Shown here: piece after piece, positions 35,429 through 48,547 of the stretch
Layout of the letters: every line of letters begins with the position of its first letter
How positions within the stretch are numbered: the first letter of the stretch is position 1
Origin: Myxococcota bacterium
Lineage (GTDB): Bacteria; Myxococcota_A; UBA9160; UBA4427
Assembly (NCBI GenBank): GCA_965250285.1
Contig: OZ252299.1
Span: forward strand, 4,096,001 to 4,160,000
Length of the DNA: 64,000 nt
Direction of reading: 5' to 3'
Program-made: the position numbers and the translations under genes
The notes under the pieces: model-generated
The model's database searches: none
The model's input: only the letters and a program-made list of their open reading frames with translations
Told to the model about the DNA's origin: nothing

Positions 35429-36958
35429 TCAGTCGAGGGGAAGGGGCGCGTCGTCGACCGACGCGAGACCCGCGTGCGTCGCGACGAGGTCGACCCGCCA
35501 CGTGCTGCCGCCGAGATCGGGCTCGAAGGCGCCGCCCTCACCGAGGCGCCAGTAGTGCAGGAGCGCTTCGTCGCCACTCAGGTCGAGCGCGTGACCGCCG
35601 GCGTCGATGGCGGCGATCTCGGCGGCCTCGAGCGGGCGAGCGTAGATCGCCGTGTGGCCGATCCGCCCTGCGTAGCCTTCGCCGATGCGAATCGCGCCGG
35701 TGAGTGCGCTCGGAGCGGCTCCATCGGTCAGCACGGCGACGCTCGACGGCGCGACCGCGGCGCCGGCGATGATCAGTCGGACGGGCGCGCTGGCATCGGG
35801 GTCGATGACCACGGCCACGTGCTGCCAGACGTCGTGCGTGACGGCATCGGCGAAGGTCGCCTCGTAGAGCACGTCTCCAGCCGCACTGCGCAGCGAAACG
35901 AGCAGGGCGGTGCCATCGATCAGGTCGACGTCCAGGGCGCTGTCGTCGACGTCGCTCGAGACCGAGAGGAGACCGCGCAGCTCGTCGGCGCTCGTCCAGG
36001 GCCGCAGCCAGGTCGAAAGCGTGAGACCGCCGTCGATCGCGTCGTCGATCGAACCCACGAGATGAGAGCCGCTGCCGTCGAACTCGATCGAGCGCCAGTC
36101 GCCTTCTACGGTCGTCGTGTCGCGGCGCGCGTCGGCGTTGGCATCACTGCTCGCAGCATCGCCCGTCACCGACGACGCGGCCGGGCTCGCGGTCGTCGGC
36201 GAAGCCATGCCGGCCGAAGGCGCGGCCATCGCAGCGCTCGCCGCCATCGCGTCCTCGATCAGATCGTCGCCCGTCACCGTGATCGTGTTCGACGGTGCCG
36301 ACGTGATGCGATCGCCGTAGGCGTAGAGGGTGAGCTCGTAGTCCTGGTCGGTCTCGAGATCGACCGGATAGCTCAGCCGGTCGTTCGCGATCTCGTTCGC
36401 CGACCCAAGCGGGATGTTCACCGTGCGGTAGTCGCCGCCACCGACCACGTCGATGTCGAGCCGGTAGCCCGCGACGCCTTCAGAGGGCGAGGGCACCCAG
36501 CGAGCGGCATAAGCCACGACCGACGGCACGGCCGGCGCGGGCGGTTCCGGGGCCGGCGGCGGGGGTGCGGGAGGCGCCGGCGGTGCCGGGGCAGGCGGTG
36601 CCGGGGCCGGCGGCGGGGTCGGTGCGTCGCCGCCTCCGTTGGTGACACCACCGCCGCTGCTGCCAGAGCCCGAGTTGCCACCGCCAGTGCTGCCACCCGA
36701 GCCGGAGTTGTCACCGCCGGTGCTACCACCCGAGCCCGAGTTGCCACCGCCGATGCTGACGATGTCTCCGATCTCGAAGGGCGGCGTGTAGCCGGTGTCA
36801 CCGGGCTGCAGCTCCTCGACGAAGCTGCACGCGCCGCTGGTCGCCACGATCAGACTCAGGAGCCCAGCGCGAATCCAGCCCGAAACGGAGGGGCGGCGTC
36901 GGGGCTCGCTCGAGGCGAGGAGATGTGCGTGGCCGGTGACTGTCATCGAAGAACTCAT
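35429..36958 (-). CDS. Putative lipoprotein with Gly/Ser and Pro linkers, Fn3-like and LamG-like domains
   Basis: Lipobox-like SGAC; W.PSPS.GVAGY..SAPSN Fn3-like segment; LTLSTWL..WQHVAVV..GRIGHTAIY..LHYWRL LamG-like; start uncertain. Confidence 0.7.
   Translation of the reverse strand: MSSSMTVTGHAHLLASSEPRRRPSVSGWIRAGLLSLIVATSGACSFVEELQPGDTGYTPPFEIGDIVSIGGGNSGSGGSTGGDNSGSGGSTGGGNSGSGSSGGGVTNGGGDAPTPPPAPAPPAPAPPAPPAPPPPAPEPPAPAVPSVVAYAARWVPSPSEGVAGYRLDIDVVGGGDYRTVNIPLGSANEIANDRLSYPVDLETDQDYELTLYAYGDRITSAPSNTITVTGDDLIEDAMAASAAMAAPSAGMASPTTASPAASSVTGDAASSDANADARRDTTTVEGDWRSIEFDGSGSHLVGSIDDAIDGGLTLSTWLRPWTSADELRGLLSVSSDVDDSALDVDLIDGTALLVSLRSAAGDVLYEATFADAVTHDVWQHVAVVIDPDASAPVRLIIAGAAVAPSSVAVLTDGAAPSALTGAIRIGEGYAGRIGHTAIYARPLEAAEIAAIDAGGHALDLSGDEALLHYWRLGEGGAFEPDLGGSTWRVDLVATHAGLASVDDAPLPLD
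36666..36751. repeat. 33-bp coding tandem repeat (GG[GD]NSGSGGST, ~2.6 copies)
   Basis: GAGCC at 36666, 36699 and 36732. Confidence 0.8.
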
Positions 36959-37197
36959 CGCCCCGCCCACCCCGACGCCGGGTGACGGCCGTCACCGGGG
37001 GGTTCGCCCCTCTCTCTTTTTTCGGAATTCTTCGAGCGACCCGATCTGGATCACACTCAGGGCGAACTGAGGGGGTCTAGAGGAAGTCGGCCCACCGAAA
37101 GATGAGCGGTTTCCCCGCGGGTCAAGTCACTTCGGTGCGAACGGCGGGCACCCGATCGCGGCTTGATGGGCCGACCGCCCTGCCCCACGCTGCGGAC

Positions 37198-38014: not shown

Positions 38015-38120
38015 CCGCGTCAGTGCGCGCCGTGCTCATGACCCGGGGCCGCGTCAGTGCGCGCCGTGCTCATGCGCCGGGGCCGAGTCAGTGCGCGCCG
38101 TGCTCATGCGCCGGGGCCGC
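38015..38120. repeat. 3 x 34-bp tandem repeat of the PCu(A)C gene 3' end
   Basis: GTCAGTGCGCGCCGTGCTCATG core; TCA (minus-strand stop) at 38020, 38054, 38088. Confidence 0.92.
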
Positions 38121-38570
38121 TGCAGGCGCGCGGCGCACCTCGGCCACGACGACGAGCTCGTCCTGCCCTTCGACGGCGAACCGGATCTCGACCTTCTGGC
38201 CGAGCTCGAGCTTCTCGGGTCGGATGAACATCACGTGCAGCCCACCGGGTTCGAGGACGACCTCGCCGCCGCTCGGCACCTCGATCGCGTCGATGCGGCG
38301 CATGCGCGCGACGCCTTCCTCGACCCAGCTTCGGTGGATCTCGGTGCGCGCCGCCACGTCACTCGCGACGCCGACGACGCGGATCGGCTCGGCGCCGGCG
38401 TTCTCGAACACGAGGTAGCCGGCTGCGTTGGCCCCCGGCGGCGGCTGACGAACCCAGGCGCCCGACACTTCGAGGTCGTCGGCGGAGGCGCCCGTCGTGG
38501 CGCTCATGGCGATCGGCACGAGCGCGAGTAGAGATAGAAGAAGCAGGCGCCCCCCGCCCGGTCGAGCCAT
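38088..38570 (-). CDS. Copper chaperone PCu(A)C
   Basis: Signal peptide; AAGY, EIH..M..PGGLHVM Cu motif; His-rich tail HEHGAH. Confidence 0.92.
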   Translation of the reverse strand: MARPGGGRLLLLSLLALVPIAMSATTGASADDLEVSGAWVRQPPPGANAAGYLVFENAGAEPIRVVGVASDVAARTEIHRSWVEEGVARMRRIDAIEVPSGGEVVLEPGGLHVMFIRPEKLELGQKVEIRFAVEGQDELVVVAEVRRAPAAAPAHEHGAH

Positions 38571-39250
38571 CACGTATCGCTCCGATCGACGGCCTGAATA
38601 CGGCGCACCAGATCGACGAAGGCCGCAGCGTCGGTCGGTTCGTGCAGGATCGCGTGGAGCCGCGCGTCGGGACCCACGAGAAAGAGAGACGAGGCGTGGT
38701 CGACCAGATAGCCCTCGGCGCCTGGTGTTCGGGGCTGTGCCTTGTTGTAGGCGCCGATGGCGCGCGTCAATCGCTCGATCTCACCGGGCTCTCCCGTCGC
38801 GCCGCGCAGCGCCGGGTGGAAGAACGAGACGTACTCGGCCATGCGGTCGATGTCGTCTCGGGCCGGGTCGACCGAGACGAAGACCACGCTCGGATCACCG
38901 GTCTCGACCAGCAGATCCTGCACGGGCGACAGGCTCTGCAGCGTCGTCGGGCAGATGTCGGGGCAGTACGTGTACCCGAAGAAGAGGAGGCTCCAGCCCC
39001 CCTCGAGCGAGCCGCGGGTGAACGGGGCGCCTTCGTGGTCGACCAGCTCGAACGAGTCGATCGCGAGCGTCACCGGCAACACGTGAACGTCTTGGCCGAA
39101 ATCGGGGACCGGCGGCGGCGCGCTGCGCCAGAGCACGGCACCGAAGCCGACGAGCACGGCGACGACGATCGCGCCCAGCACGATCGCGCTGCGATCGCCC
39201 TCGTCCTGCGGATCCTCGCCGGGCGGTGATGCTTGAAGCGGTTGGGACAT
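38570..39250 (-). CDS. SCO1/SenC family protein
   Basis: TM anchor; FFGYTYCPDICP, VSVDPARD, YLVDH. Confidence 0.94.
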   Translation of the reverse strand: MSQPLQASPPGEDPQDEGDRSAIVLGAIVVAVLVGFGAVLWRSAPPPVPDFGQDVHVLPVTLAIDSFELVDHEGAPFTRGSLEGGWSLLFFGYTYCPDICPTTLQSLSPVQDLLVETGDPSVVFVSVDPARDDIDRMAEYVSFFHPALRGATGEPGEIERLTRAIGAYNKAQPRTPGAEGYLVDHASSLFLVGPDARLHAILHEPTDAAAFVDLVRRIQAVDRSDT

Positions 39251-39475
39251 GAGCCACGTGGTTTGCGCGGGCGGGGGCGCAACGCGCGCGTTCGTTCGAA
39301 GGTAGTGCAGGCACCCGGGAAGCGGCGGGTTCGAACCCGCCACCGAGCGTTGCGACCCGGCAAGCGTTGCGACCCGACCCCGGGGTGCCCACGACGGCCG
39401 CGGCGGCTCGACGCGCTCACGCGGCCGACCCGGGCCGACGAGCGCCGGCCGCGGCCGGTGCCGCGCGGCGCCGGG

Positions 39476-40410: not shown

Positions 40411-41901
40411 ATGGCACGCTACGAGCACATCCTCGCCACGATCGGTCGAACGCCCGTCGTCCGCGTTCAGCGTCTCGAGCCCGAGGGCAGCGAGCTCTAC
40501 GTGAAGGTCGAGTCGTTCAATCCCGGTGGCTCGGTGAAGGACCGACTCGCCCTCGGCGTGATCGAGGATGCCGAGCGACGCGGCGCGCTGAAGCCCGGCC
40601 AGACCGTCGTCGAGGCGACGAGCGGCAACACGGGCATCGGCCTCGCGGTGGTGTGCGCCCGCAAGGGCTACCCGCTCGTGGTCACGATGGCCGAGAACTT
40701 CAGCGTCGAGCGACGCAAGCTCATGCGCTTTCTCGGCGCGAAGGTCGTGCTCACGCCGGCCGCGCAGAAGGGCAGCGGCATGCTGCAAAAGGCCGAGGAG
40801 CTCGCCGCCGAGCACGGCTGGTTCCTCGCGCGCCAGTTCGAGAACGAGGCCAACCCCGACATGCACTCGCGCACGACGGCGCGTGAGATCCTCGAAGACT
40901 TCGAAGGCGACGGGCTCGACTACTGGGTCACCGGGTTCGGCACCGGAGGGACGCTGACCGGTGTATCTCGGGTGCTGCGAAAGGAGAGCCCGGCGACGAA
41001 GGTCGTGGTCTGCGAGCCCGACAACGTGCCGCTGCTCGGCAGCGGCGTCGCCCAGGCCCGCACCGACGACGGTCGTCCCGCCGAGAGCCATCCCGCGTTT
41101 CGGCCGCACCTGATGCAGGGCTGGTCCCCCGACTTCATTCCGAAGATCGCGGGCGAGGCCGTCGACGAGTCTCTGATCGACGAGATCCTGCCGGTGGCCG
41201 GCGCCGACGCCCTCGAGGCCGCGCATGCACTCGCGACGCAGGAGGGCATCTTCGTCGGCATCTCGGGCGGCGCGACGTTCGCCGGCGCCGTCGAGGTGGC
41301 GAAGCGCGCGCCGAAGGGCAGTCGCGTGCTCTGCATGCTGCCCGACACGGGCGAGCGCTACCTGACCACCCCGCTCTTCGAGGGGATCGCCGAAGAGATG
41401 ACGGCCGAAGAGATCGCGCTGTCGAAGTCGACCCCGAACGTGCGCTTCGACGTCTCGCCGCCGCCCCCGCCGCCGAGCGACGAAGAAGAAGCCCCCGTCG
41501 CGATCACTCCCGAGGCCCAGGCCTTCCTCGACCGCACGCTCGCCTCGAAGGACGACCCGGTCGTCATGTTCGCGCTCGAGTGGTGCGAGTTCTGCTGGTC
41601 GGTCCGCAAGCTCTTCGCGCGGCTCGACATCCCCTACGAGACGGTCGACCTCGACTCGGCCGCCCATCAGAAGGACGACTGGGGCGCGCAGGTGCGAGCT
41701 GCCCTCACGGCGCAGACGAGCATGAAGACGATCCCGCAGGTGTTCGTCGGCGGCGAGTTCATCGGCGGCGCCACCGAGACGTTCGATGCCTGGAACGAGG
41801 GCCGGCTGAGCGACCTGCTCTCGGGCCTCGGCGTGGGCTTCGACCAGGGCGCCCGGATCGACGCCTATGACTTTCTGCCGAAGTGGCTGCAGCCGCGCTA
41901 G
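40411..41901 (+). CDS. cysK: Cysteine synthase A with C-terminal glutaredoxin domain
   Basis: NPGGSVKDR (PLP Lys), TSGNTG, GTGGT, PDTGERYL; Pro-rich linker; WCEFC..TIPQVFVGGEFIGG. Confidence 0.92.
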   Translation: MARYEHILATIGRTPVVRVQRLEPEGSELYVKVESFNPGGSVKDRLALGVIEDAERRGALKPGQTVVEATSGNTGIGLAVVCARKGYPLVVTMAENFSVERRKLMRFLGAKVVLTPAAQKGSGMLQKAEELAAEHGWFLARQFENEANPDMHSRTTAREILEDFEGDGLDYWVTGFGTGGTLTGVSRVLRKESPATKVVVCEPDNVPLLGSGVAQARTDDGRPAESHPAFRPHLMQGWSPDFIPKIAGEAVDESLIDEILPVAGADALEAAHALATQEGIFVGISGGATFAGAVEVAKRAPKGSRVLCMLPDTGERYLTTPLFEGIAEEMTAEEIALSKSTPNVRFDVSPPPPPPSDEEEAPVAITPEAQAFLDRTLASKDDPVVMFALEWCEFCWSVRKLFARLDIPYETVDLDSAAHQKDDWGAQVRAALTAQTSMKTIPQVFVGGEFIGGATETFDAWNEGRLSDLLSGLGVGFDQGARIDAYDFLPKWLQPR

Positions 41902-41908
41902 CCGGGCT

Positions 41909-42928
41909 TCAGCGGGGCTTCGCCCAGGTCGGTCGCTCCTCGATCACGTAGTCGACCACGAGGTACTCGCCGTCGCGCACGAAGACGAGCTTGACCGGCG
42001 CGTCGACGCCGTACATGTAGAGCCACTTCTGAAAGTCACCCACCGATTCGATGCGGTTGTGCGAGAACTGGACGAGCACGTCGCCGGGCTGGATGCCCAT
42101 GCGCTCAGCAGGCGACTTCGGCCAGACGTGCTCGATGCCGATGCCGCCTCGGTGACCTCGTGAGGCGGGAAACATCGCGCGCTCATCGTCGTTCAGGGAG
42201 CGCACGCTGAAACCCGTCCAGGGCGACTCGAGGCTGCGCTTCTGCTTGATGCTGTCGTAGATGTTGAAGGCGAGAAAGATGGGCAGGATGTGGAGCTCGT
42301 CGGGGTCGTCGACGTGTCCTTCCTCGGCCTCTGGGGCGTAGGCCGTGTAGAGGCCGATCACCGCGCCTTCCTTCGTGAACACCGGCCCTCCGGTCGCGCC
42401 CACCGGCAGCGCGATCTCGGCGCGAAACATCGTCGATGTCAGACTCTCCTGGTAGCACTCCCGCGTATTCAGGCCGGCTACCCGACCGCGCGCCAGCGCC
42501 AGATCCTGGCCATCGAGGGTCGTCGGCACGTAGATCTCACTCCCGACGTCGAGGGCCCGCTCGCGCTTCACGCTCGAAGGCTCGAACGTCTCATCCGAGA
42601 CGATCTCGAGCACGGCGAGGTCGATCGTGGGTTCGACGCCCACGATGCGCGCGGGGAACCGCCGCCCATCTGCTCGCAGCGTCACGGTCAGGTCGGTCAG
42701 GAGCTCGCTCGTATCGGGATCAACGAGCGTGTGATAGGTCGTCAACACGAACCCCTCACGCTCGGTGACGAAGCCCAGGGCGCGGTGCTCGCCCGACGCG
42801 TCGGCGGCCGCATCGACGGTGACGACGGTGGGGACAGGCATCGGTTCAGCTGCTGCGCGCGACGCATCCCCGAGCGCAAGCGCGACGAAACCAATGATGA
42901 TCCAAGCGACTCGCAGCCTCGGGATCAC
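41909..42928 (-). CDS. Secreted HtrA-like trypsin + PDZ protein with Thr at the catalytic Ser position
   Basis: GTGA overlap; signal peptide; LTTYH, IDLAVL, GATGGPV; PDZ WTGFSV..SPAERMGIQPGDV. Confidence 0.85.
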   Translation of the reverse strand: MIPRLRVAWIIIGFVALALGDASRAAAEPMPVPTVVTVDAAADASGEHRALGFVTEREGFVLTTYHTLVDPDTSELLTDLTVTLRADGRRFPARIVGVEPTIDLAVLEIVSDETFEPSSVKRERALDVGSEIYVPTTLDGQDLALARGRVAGLNTRECYQESLTSTMFRAEIALPVGATGGPVFTKEGAVIGLYTAYAPEAEEGHVDDPDELHILPIFLAFNIYDSIKQKRSLESPWTGFSVRSLNDDERAMFPASRGHRGGIGIEHVWPKSPAERMGIQPGDVLVQFSHNRIESVGDFQKWLYMYGVDAPVKLVFVRDGEYLVVDYVIEERPTWAKPR

Positions 42929-43464
42929 GGCGTGAAATCCTGGTTGAAGGGGTTCACGCCGGTGCCGGGCGTGATCTTGATGAACTCGTGCAGGGTCGCG
43001 GCGTGGCACGTGTTGCATGCGTCGATCAGCTGGTTCATCGCCCGCTCGAGCTCCAACTGGTTGCCGCCCGGCGGTGTCTGTTTCGCCAGCTTGGCGAACG
43101 CGAGCGTGGGTGGCAGGCCGTGCCGGTCGATGAGCAGCGCGATCGGCTGACCGTCGTATTCGGGCACGTCGCTCTGAATCTCTTTCAGCTTCTCGATCGA
43201 TTCATAGGCGTAGAACGCCGCGAGCGCGCCGTTCCCGGCCGCGACCGAGAGCGCGAGCTTGTGGGTGAGACGCTGCAGCTCACCCATGTAGGGGGCCAGC
43301 TCGACGCGCAGCTCGCCATCGTCGAGGGGCTTCAGCTCACCGGCAGGCGGATTGGCGACGCCGGCGGTGGCGAGACACACGATGAGCGCCGTGGCCGCCG
43401 CGAGGCAACCGACCCGTCGCCGGTGAGGGGGTTGCCGAGTGGATGTCTTGAGAGACTCGATCAT
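42925..43464 (-). CDS. Periplasmic monoheme cytochrome c with C-terminal CxxCH (four-helix type)
   Basis: GGAGG RBS; signal peptide; helical body; CNTCH near C-terminus. Confidence 0.8.
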   Translation of the reverse strand: MIESLKTSTRQPPHRRRVGCLAAATALIVCLATAGVANPPAGELKPLDDGELRVELAPYMGELQRLTHKLALSVAAGNGALAAFYAYESIEKLKEIQSDVPEYDGQPIALLIDRHGLPPTLAFAKLAKQTPPGGNQLELERAMNQLIDACNTCHAATLHEFIKITPGTGVNPFNQDFTP

Positions 43465-43576
43465 GACCTCCTGAGCTTGCCCGATTCCGAGCCGGGAAAC
43501 GAACGTGGAGCGGCCCACTCCGTCGTCAGATCGGAGTGGGCCGCTCGTGGTCCCGCGAGCGAACGAGCCGCTCGCC

Positions 43577-46500
43577 CTACGCGCGTCGGCGCAGGCGCCT
43601 CCGTGCCGCGATCAGCACAGGCACGATGAAGGCCAGCTCCGCACCGAGACCGCAGAGTCGCAGACCCTTGACCTGGAGATCCATCGTCACCATGCGGTGA
43701 TCGGAGGCGTCCAGTAGATCGGCCGTCAGGTCGGTGGTCAGCGGCCAGTACACGAAGCCCTGCTGTGGGGTCAACGCAGCCTGCGAAGGCAGGACGTAGT
43801 CGGCGCGCAGATTGAAGCTCGCCGTCTTCGTCTCACGCTCGCTGCCCGAAGGCACCTGCTCGAGCGCGCCCTCACTCGTCGGCGTGATGGTCGAGTCGAC
43901 GAAGGGGCTGTCCAGCAGGAGCAGCGCGGGGTTGAAGGTCGCGTCTCCATCCACCGGGTCCGCGTTCTGGTCGCCCATGATCACGAACCGCGCACCCTTC
44001 ATCAGACCGCCGCGGCGCTTGCGCAGCTTGGGTGCCCGACCCTTCTTGTCCCACTCGCGGTCGTCGTAGATGTACGCGCTCTTGTCGGGATCGACGTAGT
44101 CGGCCCAGAAGCGAATCTCATCGTGGTTCCGCAGACCATTCACGTCCGCGACGTTCGGGTCGGGGTAGACCGTGGCCGTCCCGTCGTCGAAGACAGGCGG
44201 GGTCGGGTGGCTGGCGAGCACGTGCAGCACGCCGTGACCCGGGATCCACACCGGCACGTCCATGTGGGTCTTCGACGAGAGGCGGTAGATCTCGAGCTCT
44301 TCGTCCGTGAAGTAGCTCGTGAGGTCGCCGTCGCCGTCCGTGTCGTTCGGGTCGGGCGGCAGGAACGCGCCCGGCATGTCGACCCAGCGGAACTTCTGGA
44401 ACGTCCGCACCCGGTGCTCGAGAATCTCGTGCTTCGAGAGCACGATCATCGCGAACTGACCCGCGTGGTTGCCGAAGCCGAAGGCGTCGCCCGGCCCCCC
44501 GACGCTGCCGTTGTTGTCGAGGTCGAGCCCGGCAGGCACACCGGTGTTCGACGGCGACACGAAGGCGTAGTCGTAGTAGACCGGGTCGGTGTCGTCGGCT
44601 TGGGCGACCTCGAGGTAGTTCGCCTTGAAGTCCTCGATCGTCGCCAGCGTGGCAGCGAGGCCGAACTCGCCATTCTCATCGTAGAGCTGATCGTACTCGT
44701 TGATCAGCACGATGTCGGCGTCGACCCGCTGGATCACCTCGGCCACCTGCTGGATCTGGCCATCGGCCCCCGACGCCAACGCGGTGGCGAGGTCACCCGA
44801 GTTCGGGCGATTCATCGACGTGTTGAAGCTGGCTACGCGCAGATTGCCGAGCTTCTCTGGATCGACGTATTCGGTTACCTCGACCGCATCGACCTGGATC
44901 GCGTCGATGACGCTGCCCTCACTGTCGGTCACCGTGAGCGCGACGGTGTAGACGCCCGCCGCCGCATACTCGTTGGTCGGCCCTTCGGCGTCGGACGTGT
45001 TGCCATCGCCGAAGTCCCAGGCCAGATCGTAGGGCGGCACACCCCCGGTCACCGTCGGAATGAAGGTCACCGAGCCACCGCTCCGCGTGAATGCGAAGCC
45101 GGCCTCGAGCGGTCCGCCGCGCTCGGCGATGCAGACCTGGTCGACGCCAATGCGCTTGGTGGTGCCACCGCTGTCCCCCGCCGACTCGTAGAGGAACGCC
45201 ACTCGAACGTCTTCGCCGGTCAGACCGATGATGTCGGATGACACGTCGATCCAGGCGTCTGAGGTCGATCCGTCGAGCCCGGTCGGCGTGATGTCGACCC
45301 AGCTCGTCGTGGTCGGGTCGCCGGTATAGCTGTTGGTGACCAAGACCGAGAGCGGCTTGTCGATGGTATCGCCGAAGTTCTCGTAGTACTGGAAGTCGAC
45401 GCCCGTGTTCGGGTTGCCGACGAAGATCGGCGGGCTGATCAGCCAATCCTTCGCGGGCGTGCCGCCTTCGATGCCACCGGGCGGCGAGCCGAAGTTGTTG
45501 TTGATCGCGCCCTGCTGGCCGGCTCGGTTGTCGTAGATCCAGCCGAACTCCGAGCTCAGATTGACGATCTCCCACGGCGTCGACGGATCGTCGGCGATGT
45601 CGCTGTTCTCACCGCCTTCGAAGTCGAAGCCACACTGGCCCTTGATGATCACGTCGTCGACGTTGAACCGGACGCTCTGGCCGCCACCCCCGCCCAGGCT
45701 CTGATAGCGATAGGCGATGTACGCCGTGCCATCGATGCCCGAGATGTCGAAGGGGCCCTGCGGCGTCAGCGTGCCGTCTTGCGACGTGTCGATGTTGATG
45801 ACGTTCCACGTCGCCTCGTTCGGATCGGCGTTGCTCAGCGGATCGTAATCAGTCGACCAGAGCACCTCGGGTGCGGGACCGCTGAACGCGATCTGCGCGT
45901 CGTAGGTGAGACTCTCTTCGCTGAAGAAGAGGAAGTTGATCGGATTGGTCGTGATCAGCCAGTCTTCGGTGGGCGTCTCGCCACCGAAGCCGTTGCCCTG
46001 AATCGCGCCCGTGCTCCCGAAGTCCCAGAGGACCCAGGCGAAGTTGCGATCGGGGCCCGCCACGTCGACGGGCGTGAACTGGCCGAAGCTGTCGGGCACC
46101 TCGAAGTTCTCTTCGAAGATCACCGGCAGCAGCGACACGAGGGTCGTGCCCTCGGCCGTCGCGCTGAGCGCGCTTCGGCCGTGGATGTTGACCGCCCAGA
46201 TCCGGTAGCTGTACGTCAAACCCGACTGCACCTCGGTGTCGACGTAGCTCGTGAACGTGCCGGGATACTCCCGCTCGACCACTTCCCAGGCGGCGTCGCC
46301 CGGCGACTGGCGCTCGATGCGGAAGAACTTGGCGTCGCTCTGCCCGTCCCAGGTGAGATCGAGGCTGATCTCGGTCGCGTTGGCGGTCGCCAGGCCGGTC
46401 GGCGTCGCCGGCGCCGTGCCGGCATCGGGCGAGCCCACCCATGCGATCAGCTCGGCGTCGAGGCGAAGATCCGAGCTGCCGTCGTTCTCCTGGTGCACCG

Positions 46501-48547
46501 AGATCGCGAGCACGTTGCCTGTGGCCTGCAGCGGCACGTCGGCGCCGGTAATCGGGATCTGCTTCCAGTCGGTCTCGGCCGACTCGTTCTGGCTGGCGAA
46601 CGTGTCGTTGTCCACCACCAGGTCGAGATTCAGGTTGTAGCGTGCGACCTCGACCCCGTTGACGTACACGACCGCGCCGTCGTCGACCTTCAGGTAGAGG
46701 TCGAAGAGCGCGATGTTGGTCGGATCGGCGAGGTCGAACTCACGCCGGAAGTAGTACGCGGCCGCGCGAGGCGACGGAGGCTGGACGAGATCGGTGGCCA
46801 GGCGACCGGCCGACTCTCCGTAGCCGAGCATCGTCGGCACCGGCCCCGTGGGCGTGCCGTCGGTGGCGACGTTCCACGACGCGTCGGGTACGAAACCGAC
46901 TTCGTTCCAGGATGCGCCCGGGTCGACCCCGTCGACGCGGTAGTCCCAGAGATCTCCATTCGCGATGAGAGGCGTGCGCAGCAGATCGCTGCCGCGGCCG
47001 GCGAGGTTGATCAGCACCAGCTGGCCGTTCTCGACCAGCTCAGCGCTGTCGGAGAGGCCGTTGCTCGTATGCACCTGGATCGACGAGGCATACCAGCCCT
47101 CGCCCAGGATGTCGGCCATGCTGATGACGCCCGACGACTCTTCGTTCGTCGTCAGGAAGGCCGAGCCGCCGTCGAAGAACACCTCGCCATCGTGCTCGGC
47201 GATCTCTTCGAGCTGGCCCGTCGTGATGTCGTACTCCCAGATCTTCGAGAGCCGCGCGTCGCCACCGAGATCTTCCTGGATGTAGAGCTTGGGCAGGCCG
47301 CCCTCGATGCCGAAGCCCATGTTGTCGAGGCTTCCGAGGCGGTTCTCGGGGCCATCGAGGAGCAGGGTCATCGTGCCGCCCAGGGCGGGGTTCGACAGAT
47401 CATCGAACTCGAGCCGCCAGAGGCGGGTCGGGGCGTTCAAGCCACCCGACGACGTCCCCTTGGTGACGAAGTAGAAGGTGTTCTCGAAGCCGGGGCGCGT
47501 ATCCCAAGCGCCGTCTTCGGGCCCGCCCATCTTCAGGCTCTCGAAGGTCTGAGCCGGGTCGACCGGAGTAATGGTGTCGGTGCCGCGGTTCGTGGTGTCG
47601 TTGCCGTCGACCGGGCGGTTGCCGTCGGTCCCGATCAGCTTCAGCGTGAAGGGTTCGACCGTGCCGACGGCCGAAGCGAGGTCGAGGTCGAGCTCGAAGG
47701 GCTTGCCGACGACCGCGATCGCGTAGAGATTGCCGCCGACGAGACCGGCCTTCTCGACGTCGTTGCCCGTGGTCTGCTTGGTGCCGACGTAGACGTAGAC
47801 CTCACCGTTGGTGGCATCATCGAGGAGCACGGCCACCGTCGTATCCTGCTCGAAGGGGCTGAGGACGAGGTTCTCGATGGCCATGAAGCCCAGGTGCTCG
47901 AGGTGGTACGACCGGCCGGCGTCGGGGCCCGTCACGACGTGGCCCATCGCGCGGCCCGTCGAGAAGCTCTCTTCGCCATTGAAGTAGAGGATGTTCTGGG
48001 TGCCCAGGCCCGTCGCCGAGTTGTACAGCGCGGTCGGCGCGGGGCGATCCGAAGAGCAGAAGCGATCGAAGGTGAGAGAGCCCGGGACGAAGGTCTGGGT
48101 CGTCTCGTCCCAGTCGAACGTCTCCTTGATGAGGTCATCGCCCTCAACGACCTCGTGCGTGACCTTGTCGACCTTCCACTTCGACACGAAGGCGCCCGCG
48201 TTGCCGTGGTCTCGCGGGATGCCCTGGGTGCTGTTCAGCTCGTGATTCACGATGAGATAGAAGAAATCGGGCTCCGGCGGCGAGAGCTCGGCGCCATCGA
48301 TCACGCCGATGCCGTCGGGAATGCCCGCGAGGCGCGTCGTGCCGCCCCCCGTCTTCGGCACCGTGCCGTCGTCGACCGTCAGGATCGATTCGATCAGCAC
48401 CCCAGGCACCGAAGGGAGTACGTAGGGGGGCACGGTGGTCGACGGGCTGGTGGTCTGGGCAAGAGCCGAGGCCGACAGCAACAGCGCAAGGACGGCGCCG
48501 AGAAGCACCGCCGTCGGGCGGGTGAGGGAACGGACAGCGTGCGGCAT
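43577..48547 (-). CDS. Giant surface protein: PhoX-like domain, jelly-roll, Fn3, two adhesin-like domains, PKD, EEP phosphoesterase, Cys-containing C-terminal anchor
   Basis: AGGAG + ATG 48547 (alt 48613); PDG, NHE, RFCS, GEE, EN, DD, PED, DN, QED, ESSG; VDDGAVVYVNG; DWLI x2; WDFGDG; FNTSMNR..INE..GDQNAD..DYV..SDH. Confidence 0.9.
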   Translation of the reverse strand: MPHAVRSLTRPTAVLLGAVLALLLSASALAQTTSPSTTVPPYVLPSVPGVLIESILTVDDGTVPKTGGGTTRLAGIPDGIGVIDGAELSPPEPDFFYLIVNHELNSTQGIPRDHGNAGAFVSKWKVDKVTHEVVEGDDLIKETFDWDETTQTFVPGSLTFDRFCSSDRPAPTALYNSATGLGTQNILYFNGEESFSTGRAMGHVVTGPDAGRSYHLEHLGFMAIENLVLSPFEQDTTVAVLLDDATNGEVYVYVGTKQTTGNDVEKAGLVGGNLYAIAVVGKPFELDLDLASAVGTVEPFTLKLIGTDGNRPVDGNDTTNRGTDTITPVDPAQTFESLKMGGPEDGAWDTRPGFENTFYFVTKGTSSGGLNAPTRLWRLEFDDLSNPALGGTMTLLLDGPENRLGSLDNMGFGIEGGLPKLYIQEDLGGDARLSKIWEYDITTGQLEEIAEHDGEVFFDGGSAFLTTNEESSGVISMADILGEGWYASSIQVHTSNGLSDSAELVENGQLVLINLAGRGSDLLRTPLIANGDLWDYRVDGVDPGASWNEVGFVPDASWNVATDGTPTGPVPTMLGYGESAGRLATDLVQPPSPRAAAYYFRREFDLADPTNIALFDLYLKVDDGAVVYVNGVEVARYNLNLDLVVDNDTFASQNESAETDWKQIPITGADVPLQATGNVLAISVHQENDGSSDLRLDAELIAWVGSPDAGTAPATPTGLATANATEISLDLTWDGQSDAKFFRIERQSPGDAAWEVVEREYPGTFTSYVDTEVQSGLTYSYRIWAVNIHGRSALSATAEGTTLVSLLPVIFEENFEVPDSFGQFTPVDVAGPDRNFAWVLWDFGSTGAIQGNGFGGETPTEDWLITTNPINFLFFSEESLTYDAQIAFSGPAPEVLWSTDYDPLSNADPNEATWNVINIDTSQDGTLTPQGPFDISGIDGTAYIAYRYQSLGGGGGQSVRFNVDDVIIKGQCGFDFEGGENSDIADDPSTPWEIVNLSSEFGWIYDNRAGQQGAINNNFGSPPGGIEGGTPAKDWLISPPIFVGNPNTGVDFQYYENFGDTIDKPLSVLVTNSYTGDPTTTSWVDITPTGLDGSTSDAWIDVSSDIIGLTGEDVRVAFLYESAGDSGGTTKRIGVDQVCIAERGGPLEAGFAFTRSGGSVTFIPTVTGGVPPYDLAWDFGDGNTSDAEGPTNEYAAAGVYTVALTVTDSEGSVIDAIQVDAVEVTEYVDPEKLGNLRVASFNTSMNRPNSGDLATALASGADGQIQQVAEVIQRVDADIVLINEYDQLYDENGEFGLAATLATIEDFKANYLEVAQADDTDPVYYDYAFVSPSNTGVPAGLDLDNNGSVGGPGDAFGFGNHAGQFAMIVLSKHEILEHRVRTFQKFRWVDMPGAFLPPDPNDTDGDGDLTSYFTDEELEIYRLSSKTHMDVPVWIPGHGVLHVLASHPTPPVFDDGTATVYPDPNVADVNGLRNHDEIRFWADYVDPDKSAYIYDDREWDKKGRAPKLRKRRGGLMKGARFVIMGDQNADPVDGDATFNPALLLLDSPFVDSTITPTSEGALEQVPSGSERETKTASFNLRADYVLPSQAALTPQQGFVYWPLTTDLTADLLDASDHRMVTMDLQVKGLRLCGLGAELAFIVPVLIAARRRLRRRA

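Follow-up and report, generated by a model that had tools for sequence, protein, structure and literature searches.

PhoX and PhoD phosphatases hold a cysteine-ligated Fe3+ and are exported by twin-arginine translocation (Tat); in the sections of the report used here, its authors speculate that iron is inserted in the cytoplasm (PMC4223295). A precedent for an HtrA-fold pseudoprotease repurposed for metal binding is MamO, as treated in part of PMC4794232. Here we analyze a 64,000-nucleotide stretch of a Myxococcota bacterium (the window; assembly GCA_965250285.1, contig OZ252299.1, positions 4,096,001 to 4,160,000). Three of its genes, all on the reverse strand, encode a giant exported phosphoesterase (43577..48547; 1656 amino acids (aa) from the ATG at 48547), a class II monoheme cytochrome c (gene 2; 42925..43464; 179 aa) and an HtrA-fold pseudoprotease with one PDZ domain (gene 3; 41909..42928; 339 aa, GTG start), as assigned from open reading frames (ORFs) with domain matches, predicted fold, or both. 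Each product starts with a hydrophobic, signal-like peptide, as judged by eye. Quite possibly, the cytochrome joins the triad-less HtrA in a periplasmic module that captures Fe2+, oxidizes it and passes the Fe3+ to Sec-exported phosphatases, metallating them. A sequence-only reading of this locus knew of no described system with such a combination, and the literature searched, which excluded subscription papers and supplements, agrees: the papers found describe neither the cytochrome and pseudo-HtrA pair nor a helper for the periplasmic supply of iron to exported phosphatases.

A scan of GTDB genomes seeded with gene 3 returned 43 loci, mostly from Verrucomicrobiota, with further examples in Myxococcota/Deltaproteobacteria, Gammaproteobacteria and one spirochaete. 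The cytochrome lies directly upstream of the pseudo-HtrA in 40 of them; two of the remaining three (L043, L049) start at a contig end no more than 20 bp from the match, while the third (L040) has no such explanation. Across 124 genomes of one Verrucomicrobiota family, the pseudo-HtrA occurs in 20 and the cytochrome in 21; all 20 pseudo-HtrAs adjoin a cytochrome, and the 21st cytochrome sits at a contig end. Two further members of the pseudo-HtrA family, found independently, also have an adjoining cytochrome. The module is patchily distributed: it was found in 2 of the 401 genomes from the window's phylum and in 1 of 301 from a gammaproteobacterial order. Among cultured organisms, the type-strain genome of Roseibacillus ishigakijimensis carries the pair (L024) and Luteolibacter arcticus has the cytochrome (P0005).

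The giant gene is upstream and on the same strand in six of the 43 loci (L012, L016, L034, L035, L052, L053), with one small PEP-CTERM-like gene between it and the module in L012. The possibility, raised with the sequence-only reading, that the genes are never adjacent elsewhere thus fails on this neighborhood survey. Of the three-gene unit proposed there, the cytochrome/pseudo-HtrA pair is conserved, while the giant enzyme can be swapped for others (PhoX-like, PhoD, purple acid phosphatase and 5'-nucleotidase giants). In the best reading, the two small genes are the conserved core, and the giant enzyme is a client whose place others can take. Two of the loci look damaged, by decay or long-read errors: L052:8091-10877, where the cytochrome is interrupted by about 1.2 kb plus frameshifts, and L053:4387-11012, with several frameshifts. 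A PEP-CTERM family of 600-1,300 aa is often divergent from or adjoining the module in Prosthecobacter-like genomes (11 of the 43 loci, including L017, L018, L019, L030, L033, L036, L037, L039 and L050).

Phosphatases are the recurrent neighbors of the pair. Local profiles place a secreted phosphorus-scavenging domain within 10 kb in 34 of the 43 loci, a PhoX-like one in 21, and an Fe-type enzyme (PhoX-like, PhoD or purple acid phosphatase) lies near the pair in 26; other neighbors carry 5'-nucleotidase or endonuclease/exonuclease/phosphatase (EEP)/endonuclease I domains. Pfam matches to 42 hand-picked neighbors include a 2,000-aa PhoX-EEP-endonuclease I protein, PhoA, purple acid phosphatases and distant PhoX-like proteins, and there are giants of 2,300-3,100 aa with PhoD, 5'-nucleotidase or phytase-like domains. 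All four orientations of enzyme relative to pair occur (14/12/10/9). As a control, none of 18 loci of ordinary, Ser-intact HtrAs has any phosphorus-scavenging domain; these came from a loose-threshold scan of 351 Verrucomicrobiota genomes with the fused-family profile (see below), which retrieved mostly ordinary HtrAs and from which 20 loci were taken, two of them family members. The PhoX-like profile has 51 matches across the 43 whole genomes, equivalent to a chance of about 0.4% per locus; since the neighbor profiles were trained on the 43 loci themselves and many loci are kin, the calculated p-values are too strong, but the positional excess is independent of that training. In the same Verrucomicrobiota family, a PhoX-like gene is found in 17 of 20 genomes with the pseudo-HtrA versus 16 of 104 without it. 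By pattern rather than signal predictor, none of 35 neighboring enzyme N-termini fits a Tat signal and most are Sec-like, a few starts being uncertain.

Gene 3 encodes a trypsin-like domain followed by one PDZ domain, with a predicted fold like that of MucD, DegS and DegP (pLDDT 89.7, Foldseek E 2e-21). The triad positions in the window are H66, D103 and T179, the last at the nucleophile position (42394-42392), and the His-Asp-Ser signature with GNSGGP of an active HtrA is absent. Of 42 aligned GTDB sequences, 2 have the His of the triad, 6 the Asp and none the Ser. The label 'Ser-to-Thr HtrA' applied from sequence alone is therefore misleading: Thr is incidental, Ile, Leu and Val dominate, and His and Asp are lost too. 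What is invariant in these 42 sequences is C158-Y-Q (42457-42449), the PDZ motifs SPWTGF and DFQKWLY and a C-terminal E-RP. A search of 1.84 billion representatives yielded 20 core clusters (E < 1e-90) plus a sister group. No representative retains an intact triad (0 of 20 core, 0 of 62 sister); CYQ occurs in all 20 core representatives and in 54 of the 62 sister ones. In a 129-row tree that omits 13 of 58 'other' rows, all rows with fewer than 240 matched columns, and MamO, all sampled pseudoproteases fall on one side of a branch with 100% SH-aLRT support, with 36 DegP-like rows on the other. Nine pseudo-HtrAs beside the core in this tree have lost the invariant Cys (P0177, P0184, P0190, P0196, P0198, P0202, P0205, P0210, P0227); one member of the Cys-less sub-clade is from Vibrio sp. 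SCSIO 43136. Databases name the relatives of gene 3 serine proteases, a mis-annotation for members of this family, and those of gene 2 hypothetical proteins.

The gene 2 product has a single C-terminal CxxCH (C150-H154; 43017-43003) at the end of helix 4 of a predicted four-helix bundle (pLDDT 85.6) that resembles cytochrome cb562, cytochrome c' and Kusta0087/0088. This combination of bundle and C-terminal CxxCH assigns it to class II, and the host carries cytochrome c assembly genes. Invariant in the family are M60 at the start of helix 1, H68 and a C-terminal NPFNQxF; a PxY motif is also found. M60 occupies what we take to be the ligand position of cytochrome b562, and by that analogy it is the predicted sixth ligand of a low-spin Met60/His154 heme. 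The best structural match is the Kusta0087/0088 complex (Z 12.7, rmsd 2.5, 105 residues aligned), a Z score within the range of generic helical bundles, whose hemes are presumably Cys/His-ligated. A sequence search of the PDB with the cytochrome returned nothing significant. In the window's order, six of seven non-self matches to distant cytochrome relatives have no pseudo-HtrA within 1.5 kb. Loci L008-L011 of that order encode distant class II cytochromes (GLGEIM...CxxCH...NPYxNQ) without a pseudoprotease, one of them adjoining a class I cytochrome c.

The giant phosphoesterase opens with a PhoX-like domain (46988..48457) that keeps the NHE, RFCS, GEE, EN, DD, PED, DN, QED and ESSG motifs. 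A profile of 20 such N-terminal domains searched against the PDB matched solely Pseudomonas fluorescens PhoX (E 2.5e-5), and the alignment to 3zwu, covering its central part, pairs the equivalents of E273, D292, E387, D479 and D494. Fe/Ca ligand motifs are conserved over the 20 aligned domains, with N- and C-terminal ligands assigned by motif only; E90, C179, E194 and E532 of PhoX presumably complete the ligand set. The Cys of the domain is invariant among the aligned domains. The protein falls below the cut-off of Pfam PF05787, which homologs at 26-28% identity pass; in the Atlas its first matches are PF05787 clusters at 0.95-0.96, with recognition at 2299 against the tool's line of 2300. Sequence searches of the PDB with the single PhoX-like domain and with the EEP domain found nothing significant. 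The N-terminus has no RR and ends in ASALA, a Sec-like rather than a twin-arginine signal by pattern. R385 of PhoX is an active-site residue and is Lys in Psip1, according to the part of PMC11098088 used here. Its equivalent is Gly in the window (GGPED at 47527) and in the six orthologs, while most other aligned domains have RPED. The activity of the PhoX-like domain is uncertain because of this change.

Downstream on the same reverse-strand gene follow an FN3-like domain (46151..46405; weak at E 0.032, with E 3e-5 in the ortholog of L012), a choice-of-anchor J domain (45131..45592; E 2.9e-18, the better of two stretches), a PKD domain match (44891..45079) and an EEP domain (43697..44830; PF03372, E 1.4e-16) with canonical N, E, H, GDxN, D and SDH motifs. 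The altered catalytic motifs reported from sequence alone thus hold for the HtrA, with its lost triad, and for the PhoX-like domain, with its R385-to-Gly change, but not for EEP. The C-terminus (43577..43657) comprises CGLGAEL, a hydrophobic segment and an Arg-rich tail; it has no NCBIfam match, and genome-wide the motif occurs in this ORF only. The segment and basic tail are likely a membrane anchor or sorting signal. The same architecture is found in the six loci with the giant gene upstream, at 60-76% identity in the N-terminal domain. Two tandem PhoX-like propellers occur in proteins of G536:C43, G544:C190 and G629:C3, genomes that lack the module.

The sister pseudoproteases connect the family to iron uptake. 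Twenty sister representatives carry a class I cytochrome c along with an N-terminal helical domain. Seeding a metagenome scan with them gave 78 loci from the best 80 of 175, of which 33 are fused, 21 unfused, 17 truncated and 7 match the N-terminal part only. Five of these last seven are cytochrome c/FTR1 iron permeases, which we take to be PbrT-type. The region fused to the sister pseudoproteases corresponds to the periplasmic part of an iron permease, since it occurs fused to FTR1 in those five loci. Unfused sister loci encode a di-heme DHOR protein in 16 of 21, an imelysin in 10 of 21 and a PhoX-like protein in 5 of 21; PhoX-like genes occur in 8 of the 78 sister loci overall. Imelysin/DUF1111 clusters are implicated in iron uptake in the portion of PMC3143127 drawn on here. 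With the class II cytochrome of the core, the fused class I/FTR1-type cytochrome and the DHOR neighbors, a single pseudoprotease family has three different c-type hemes as companions; in two of these three arrangements PhoX-like genes recur. Imelysin, DHOR and permease neighbors are found in none of the 43 core loci, and genome G000 has no DHOR or FTR1 match. Imelysin distribution over the 124 genomes is uninformative: none of nine carriers has the module and only two have a PhoX-like gene.

Iron loading of the PhoX-type site, one of several functions suggested by the sequence-only reading, is now the best reading, backed by the sister fusions and neighbors tied to iron uptake, with the unit and the client corrected as above. 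Giants exported by Sec cross the membrane unfolded and must obtain their iron outside the cytoplasm. Under phosphorus limitation, the giant enzyme would leave via Sec and later be anchored at the surface or membrane. With its PDZ groove and former substrate cleft, the pseudo-HtrA would bind the client in unfolded or apo form, and the cytochrome heme, predicted to be low-spin Met60/His154 by analogy to cytochrome b562, would accept an electron from Fe2+. Cys158 may hold the iron, or keep a client Cys ligand reduced, until the Fe3+/Ca2+ site has formed. Such a module would speed metallation where iron is scarce without being strictly required. A broader version of this proposal appears rather doubtful to us: that a new, Cys-bearing family of HtrA pseudoproteases took on three mutually unrelated c-type hemes and is the first insertase dedicated to periplasmic Fe3+, so that PhoX, PhoD and purple acid phosphatases no longer depend on Tat and can be built into giant surface enzymes.

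Several observations weigh against iron loading. Many of the 43 loci are close kin, so the counts overstate independence. PhoX-like genes also do without the module: within the Verrucomicrobiota family, the cytochrome is missing from 15 of 33 genomes with a PhoX-like gene, 6 of 8 such genomes in the window's order have no module, and G563 encodes a giant PhoX-like form with no module within 38 kb. Conversely, 8 of the 34 enzyme-bearing loci have only non-Fe-type domains (5 of the 8 being cut by a locus or contig end), the R. ishigakijimensis genome has no PhoX-like match and a 5'-nucleotidase giant adjoins its pair, and the 33 fused sister forms have one purple acid phosphatase and no PhoX-like gene as phosphatase neighbors. 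The purple acid phosphatases of L044 and L046 have N-termini that look Tat-like by eye. H205 and H213 of the pseudo-HtrA are each present in 38 of 42 GTDB sequences but vary across the wider family, which leaves no evident multi-residue metal site; the His-rich loop, not conserved there, was rejected as one. Finally, Psip1, an Fe/Ca enzyme of the PhoX fold, was made in Escherichia coli without such a helper, as given in the part of PMC11098088 consulted.

HtrA proteins can act as chaperones, which counts for an account in which the pseudo-HtrA holds giant Sec-exported surface enzymes (1,500-3,000 aa) as they fold, while its Cys and the heme form a redox relay that keeps unpaired client cysteines reduced, iron not being carried. 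Most core neighbors are giant multidomain proteins, some without Fe-type domains, the PDZ groove residues are invariant and so is the PhoX-like Cys; we nevertheless consider this account unlikely, as it leaves the FTR1 periplasmic fusion and the imelysin/DHOR neighbors unaccounted for, and the PhoX-like clients of the sister family, in cases with a clear start, measure only 480-690 aa. General periplasmic iron capture, co-regulated with phosphorus-starvation genes to meet the iron demand of Fe-phosphatases or to mobilize Fe-bound phosphate, and involving no contact with a phosphatase, is favored by the iron-uptake contexts of the sister forms, the fused forms that stand alone, the frequent upstream GTCAC element of the module's own and the lack of an FTR1 or DHOR match in G000. 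We judge it similarly improbable, given that no transporter recurs beside the core pair, that the pair is tightly linked to phosphatases in four orientations, which hints at a closer coupling, and that one heme in the periplasm would probably not reach a mineral.

A sensory role has least to recommend it and seems to us very unlikely. Here, a DegS-like pseudoprotease would sense the heme's redox or ligand state, possibly through Cys158 ligation, and activate a true protease or release the surface enzyme. The one-PDZ, DegS-like architecture fits, as does the best structural match of the cytochrome, the Kusta0087/0088 complex with its presumed Cys/His hemes, but that Z of 12.7 is no higher than generic helical bundles reach and the b562-like position is taken by an invariant Met of the cytochrome itself. 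MamO also activates MamE, in the sections of PMC4794232 used here; beside the present pair, no active protease, anti-sigma factor or regulator recurs.

The 112-bp gap between the giant gene and the module (43465..43576, reverse strand), unique in the genome, holds two hairpins (-62 kcal/mol) with a terminator-like stem at 43521-43507, and AGGAGG, resembling a ribosome-binding site, precedes the cytochrome. The strong hairpin could lower read-through or stabilize the upstream message. A sigma-70 scan gave no promoter-like sites. Of 27 Verrucomicrobiota loci with hand-set starts, 24 have GTCAC in the 150 nt upstream of the cytochrome, compared with 0.137 of random windows; the giant gene is preceded by two GTCAC sites at a distance of 52 bp, which do not make a canonical tandem. 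In G000:C1, TTCAC, GTAAC and GTCAC half-sites with 11-bp spacing lie at about 1,118,270-1,118,300, upstream of the first PBP_like_2 (pstS-like) gene. Judged by the Pho consensus, this array is likely the Pho box of the lineage. Pho regulation of the module is only a lead, suggested by these motifs.

The immediate setting agrees with the sequence-only reading as to layout: the ORF coordinates confirm three co-oriented genes for exported proteins, the 112-bp gap, the overlap of the pseudo-HtrA start with the cytochrome stop codon as GTGA, and a convergent cysK. The latter (40411-41901, forward strand) encodes cysteine synthase A fused to a C-terminal glutaredoxin (Pfam PALP and Glutaredoxin, CEFC motif); as a feature of the system it falls away, not being conserved beside the module in other loci. 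A SCO1/SenC and PCu(A)C copper chaperone pair (38088-39343, reverse strand) lies 2.5 kb downstream and does not recur either. Neither of these families, nor the 2OG oxygenase, is found beside the module in four or more loci, and all were rejected as module parts. At 35429-36970 (reverse strand) lies a gene for a probable lipoprotein that has a laminin-G-like domain and linkers rich in Gly/Ser and in Pro. Third-position GC of the locus genes is 0.85-0.89, against 0.82-0.92 in neighbors, so composition bears no sign of recent transfer; a plasmid search gave no match.

Iron-dependent phosphatases tie the phosphorus cycle to the iron cycle, and the published proposal for Fe3+ is cytoplasmic loading followed by Tat export. 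Sec-type phosphatases with a fixed heme and pseudoprotease companion open periplasmic loading to direct tests in cultured carriers. An Fe3+ insertase dedicated to the periplasm, if true, would be new in kind, and the pseudo-HtrA would be the second HtrA, independently of the first, to have become a likely metal-handling protein.

Compared with class II cytochromes c (c', c556, cb562; Kusta0087/0088), gene 2 shares the four-helix bundle and C-terminal CxxCH but has no Pfam or NCBIfam match, 8-21% identity and its own H68, PxY and NPFNQxF motifs. The pseudo-HtrA has the trypsin-like fold and PDZ of DegS, DegP and MucD, but core members all lack the catalytic Ser, have mostly lost His and Asp, and show no evident membrane anchor. 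PhoX (P. fluorescens, PDB 3zwu/4amf) and Psip1 belong to the same propeller family as the giant enzyme, with the E273/D292/E387/D479/D494 equivalents and the invariant Cys, whereas the latter has a Sec-like signal, EEP and anchor domains, Gly in place of R385 and a sub-cut-off Pfam PhoX score. Imelysin/DUF1111 (DHOR) clusters, EfeUOB and cytochrome c/FTR1 permeases similarly pair a periplasmic heme protein with an iron-binding partner, and the genes of the sister pseudoproteases lie within imelysin/DHOR and FTR1 systems or are fused to parts of them. In the core module, by contrast, the partner is a pseudoprotease, and no permease, imelysin or DHOR adjoins.

MamO, as described in part of PMC4794232, is likewise an HtrA-fold pseudoprotease in a metal role, with Thr at the nucleophile position as in the window copy. 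The present family differs in lacking its di-His site (H148, the residue preceding the catalytic Asp, and H263 in helix 2): by sequence mapping only, position 102 is Ile/Leu in 42 of 42 and His is nearly absent from 216-231. It also scores 42.4 bits against a cut-off of 800 for NCBIfam NF040961, has 339 aa and no TauE, and combines an invariant CYQ and a class II cytochrome partner with a phosphatase rather than a magnetosome context. MamO, MamE and MamP resemble the module further in combining HtrA/PDZ modules with c-type hemes in iron handling; we take MamE and MamP to contain heme domains, and a Pfam MCR match was seen in P0223. The parts of the module belong to known folds, and its logic resembles that of the magnetosome HtrA/heme proteins.

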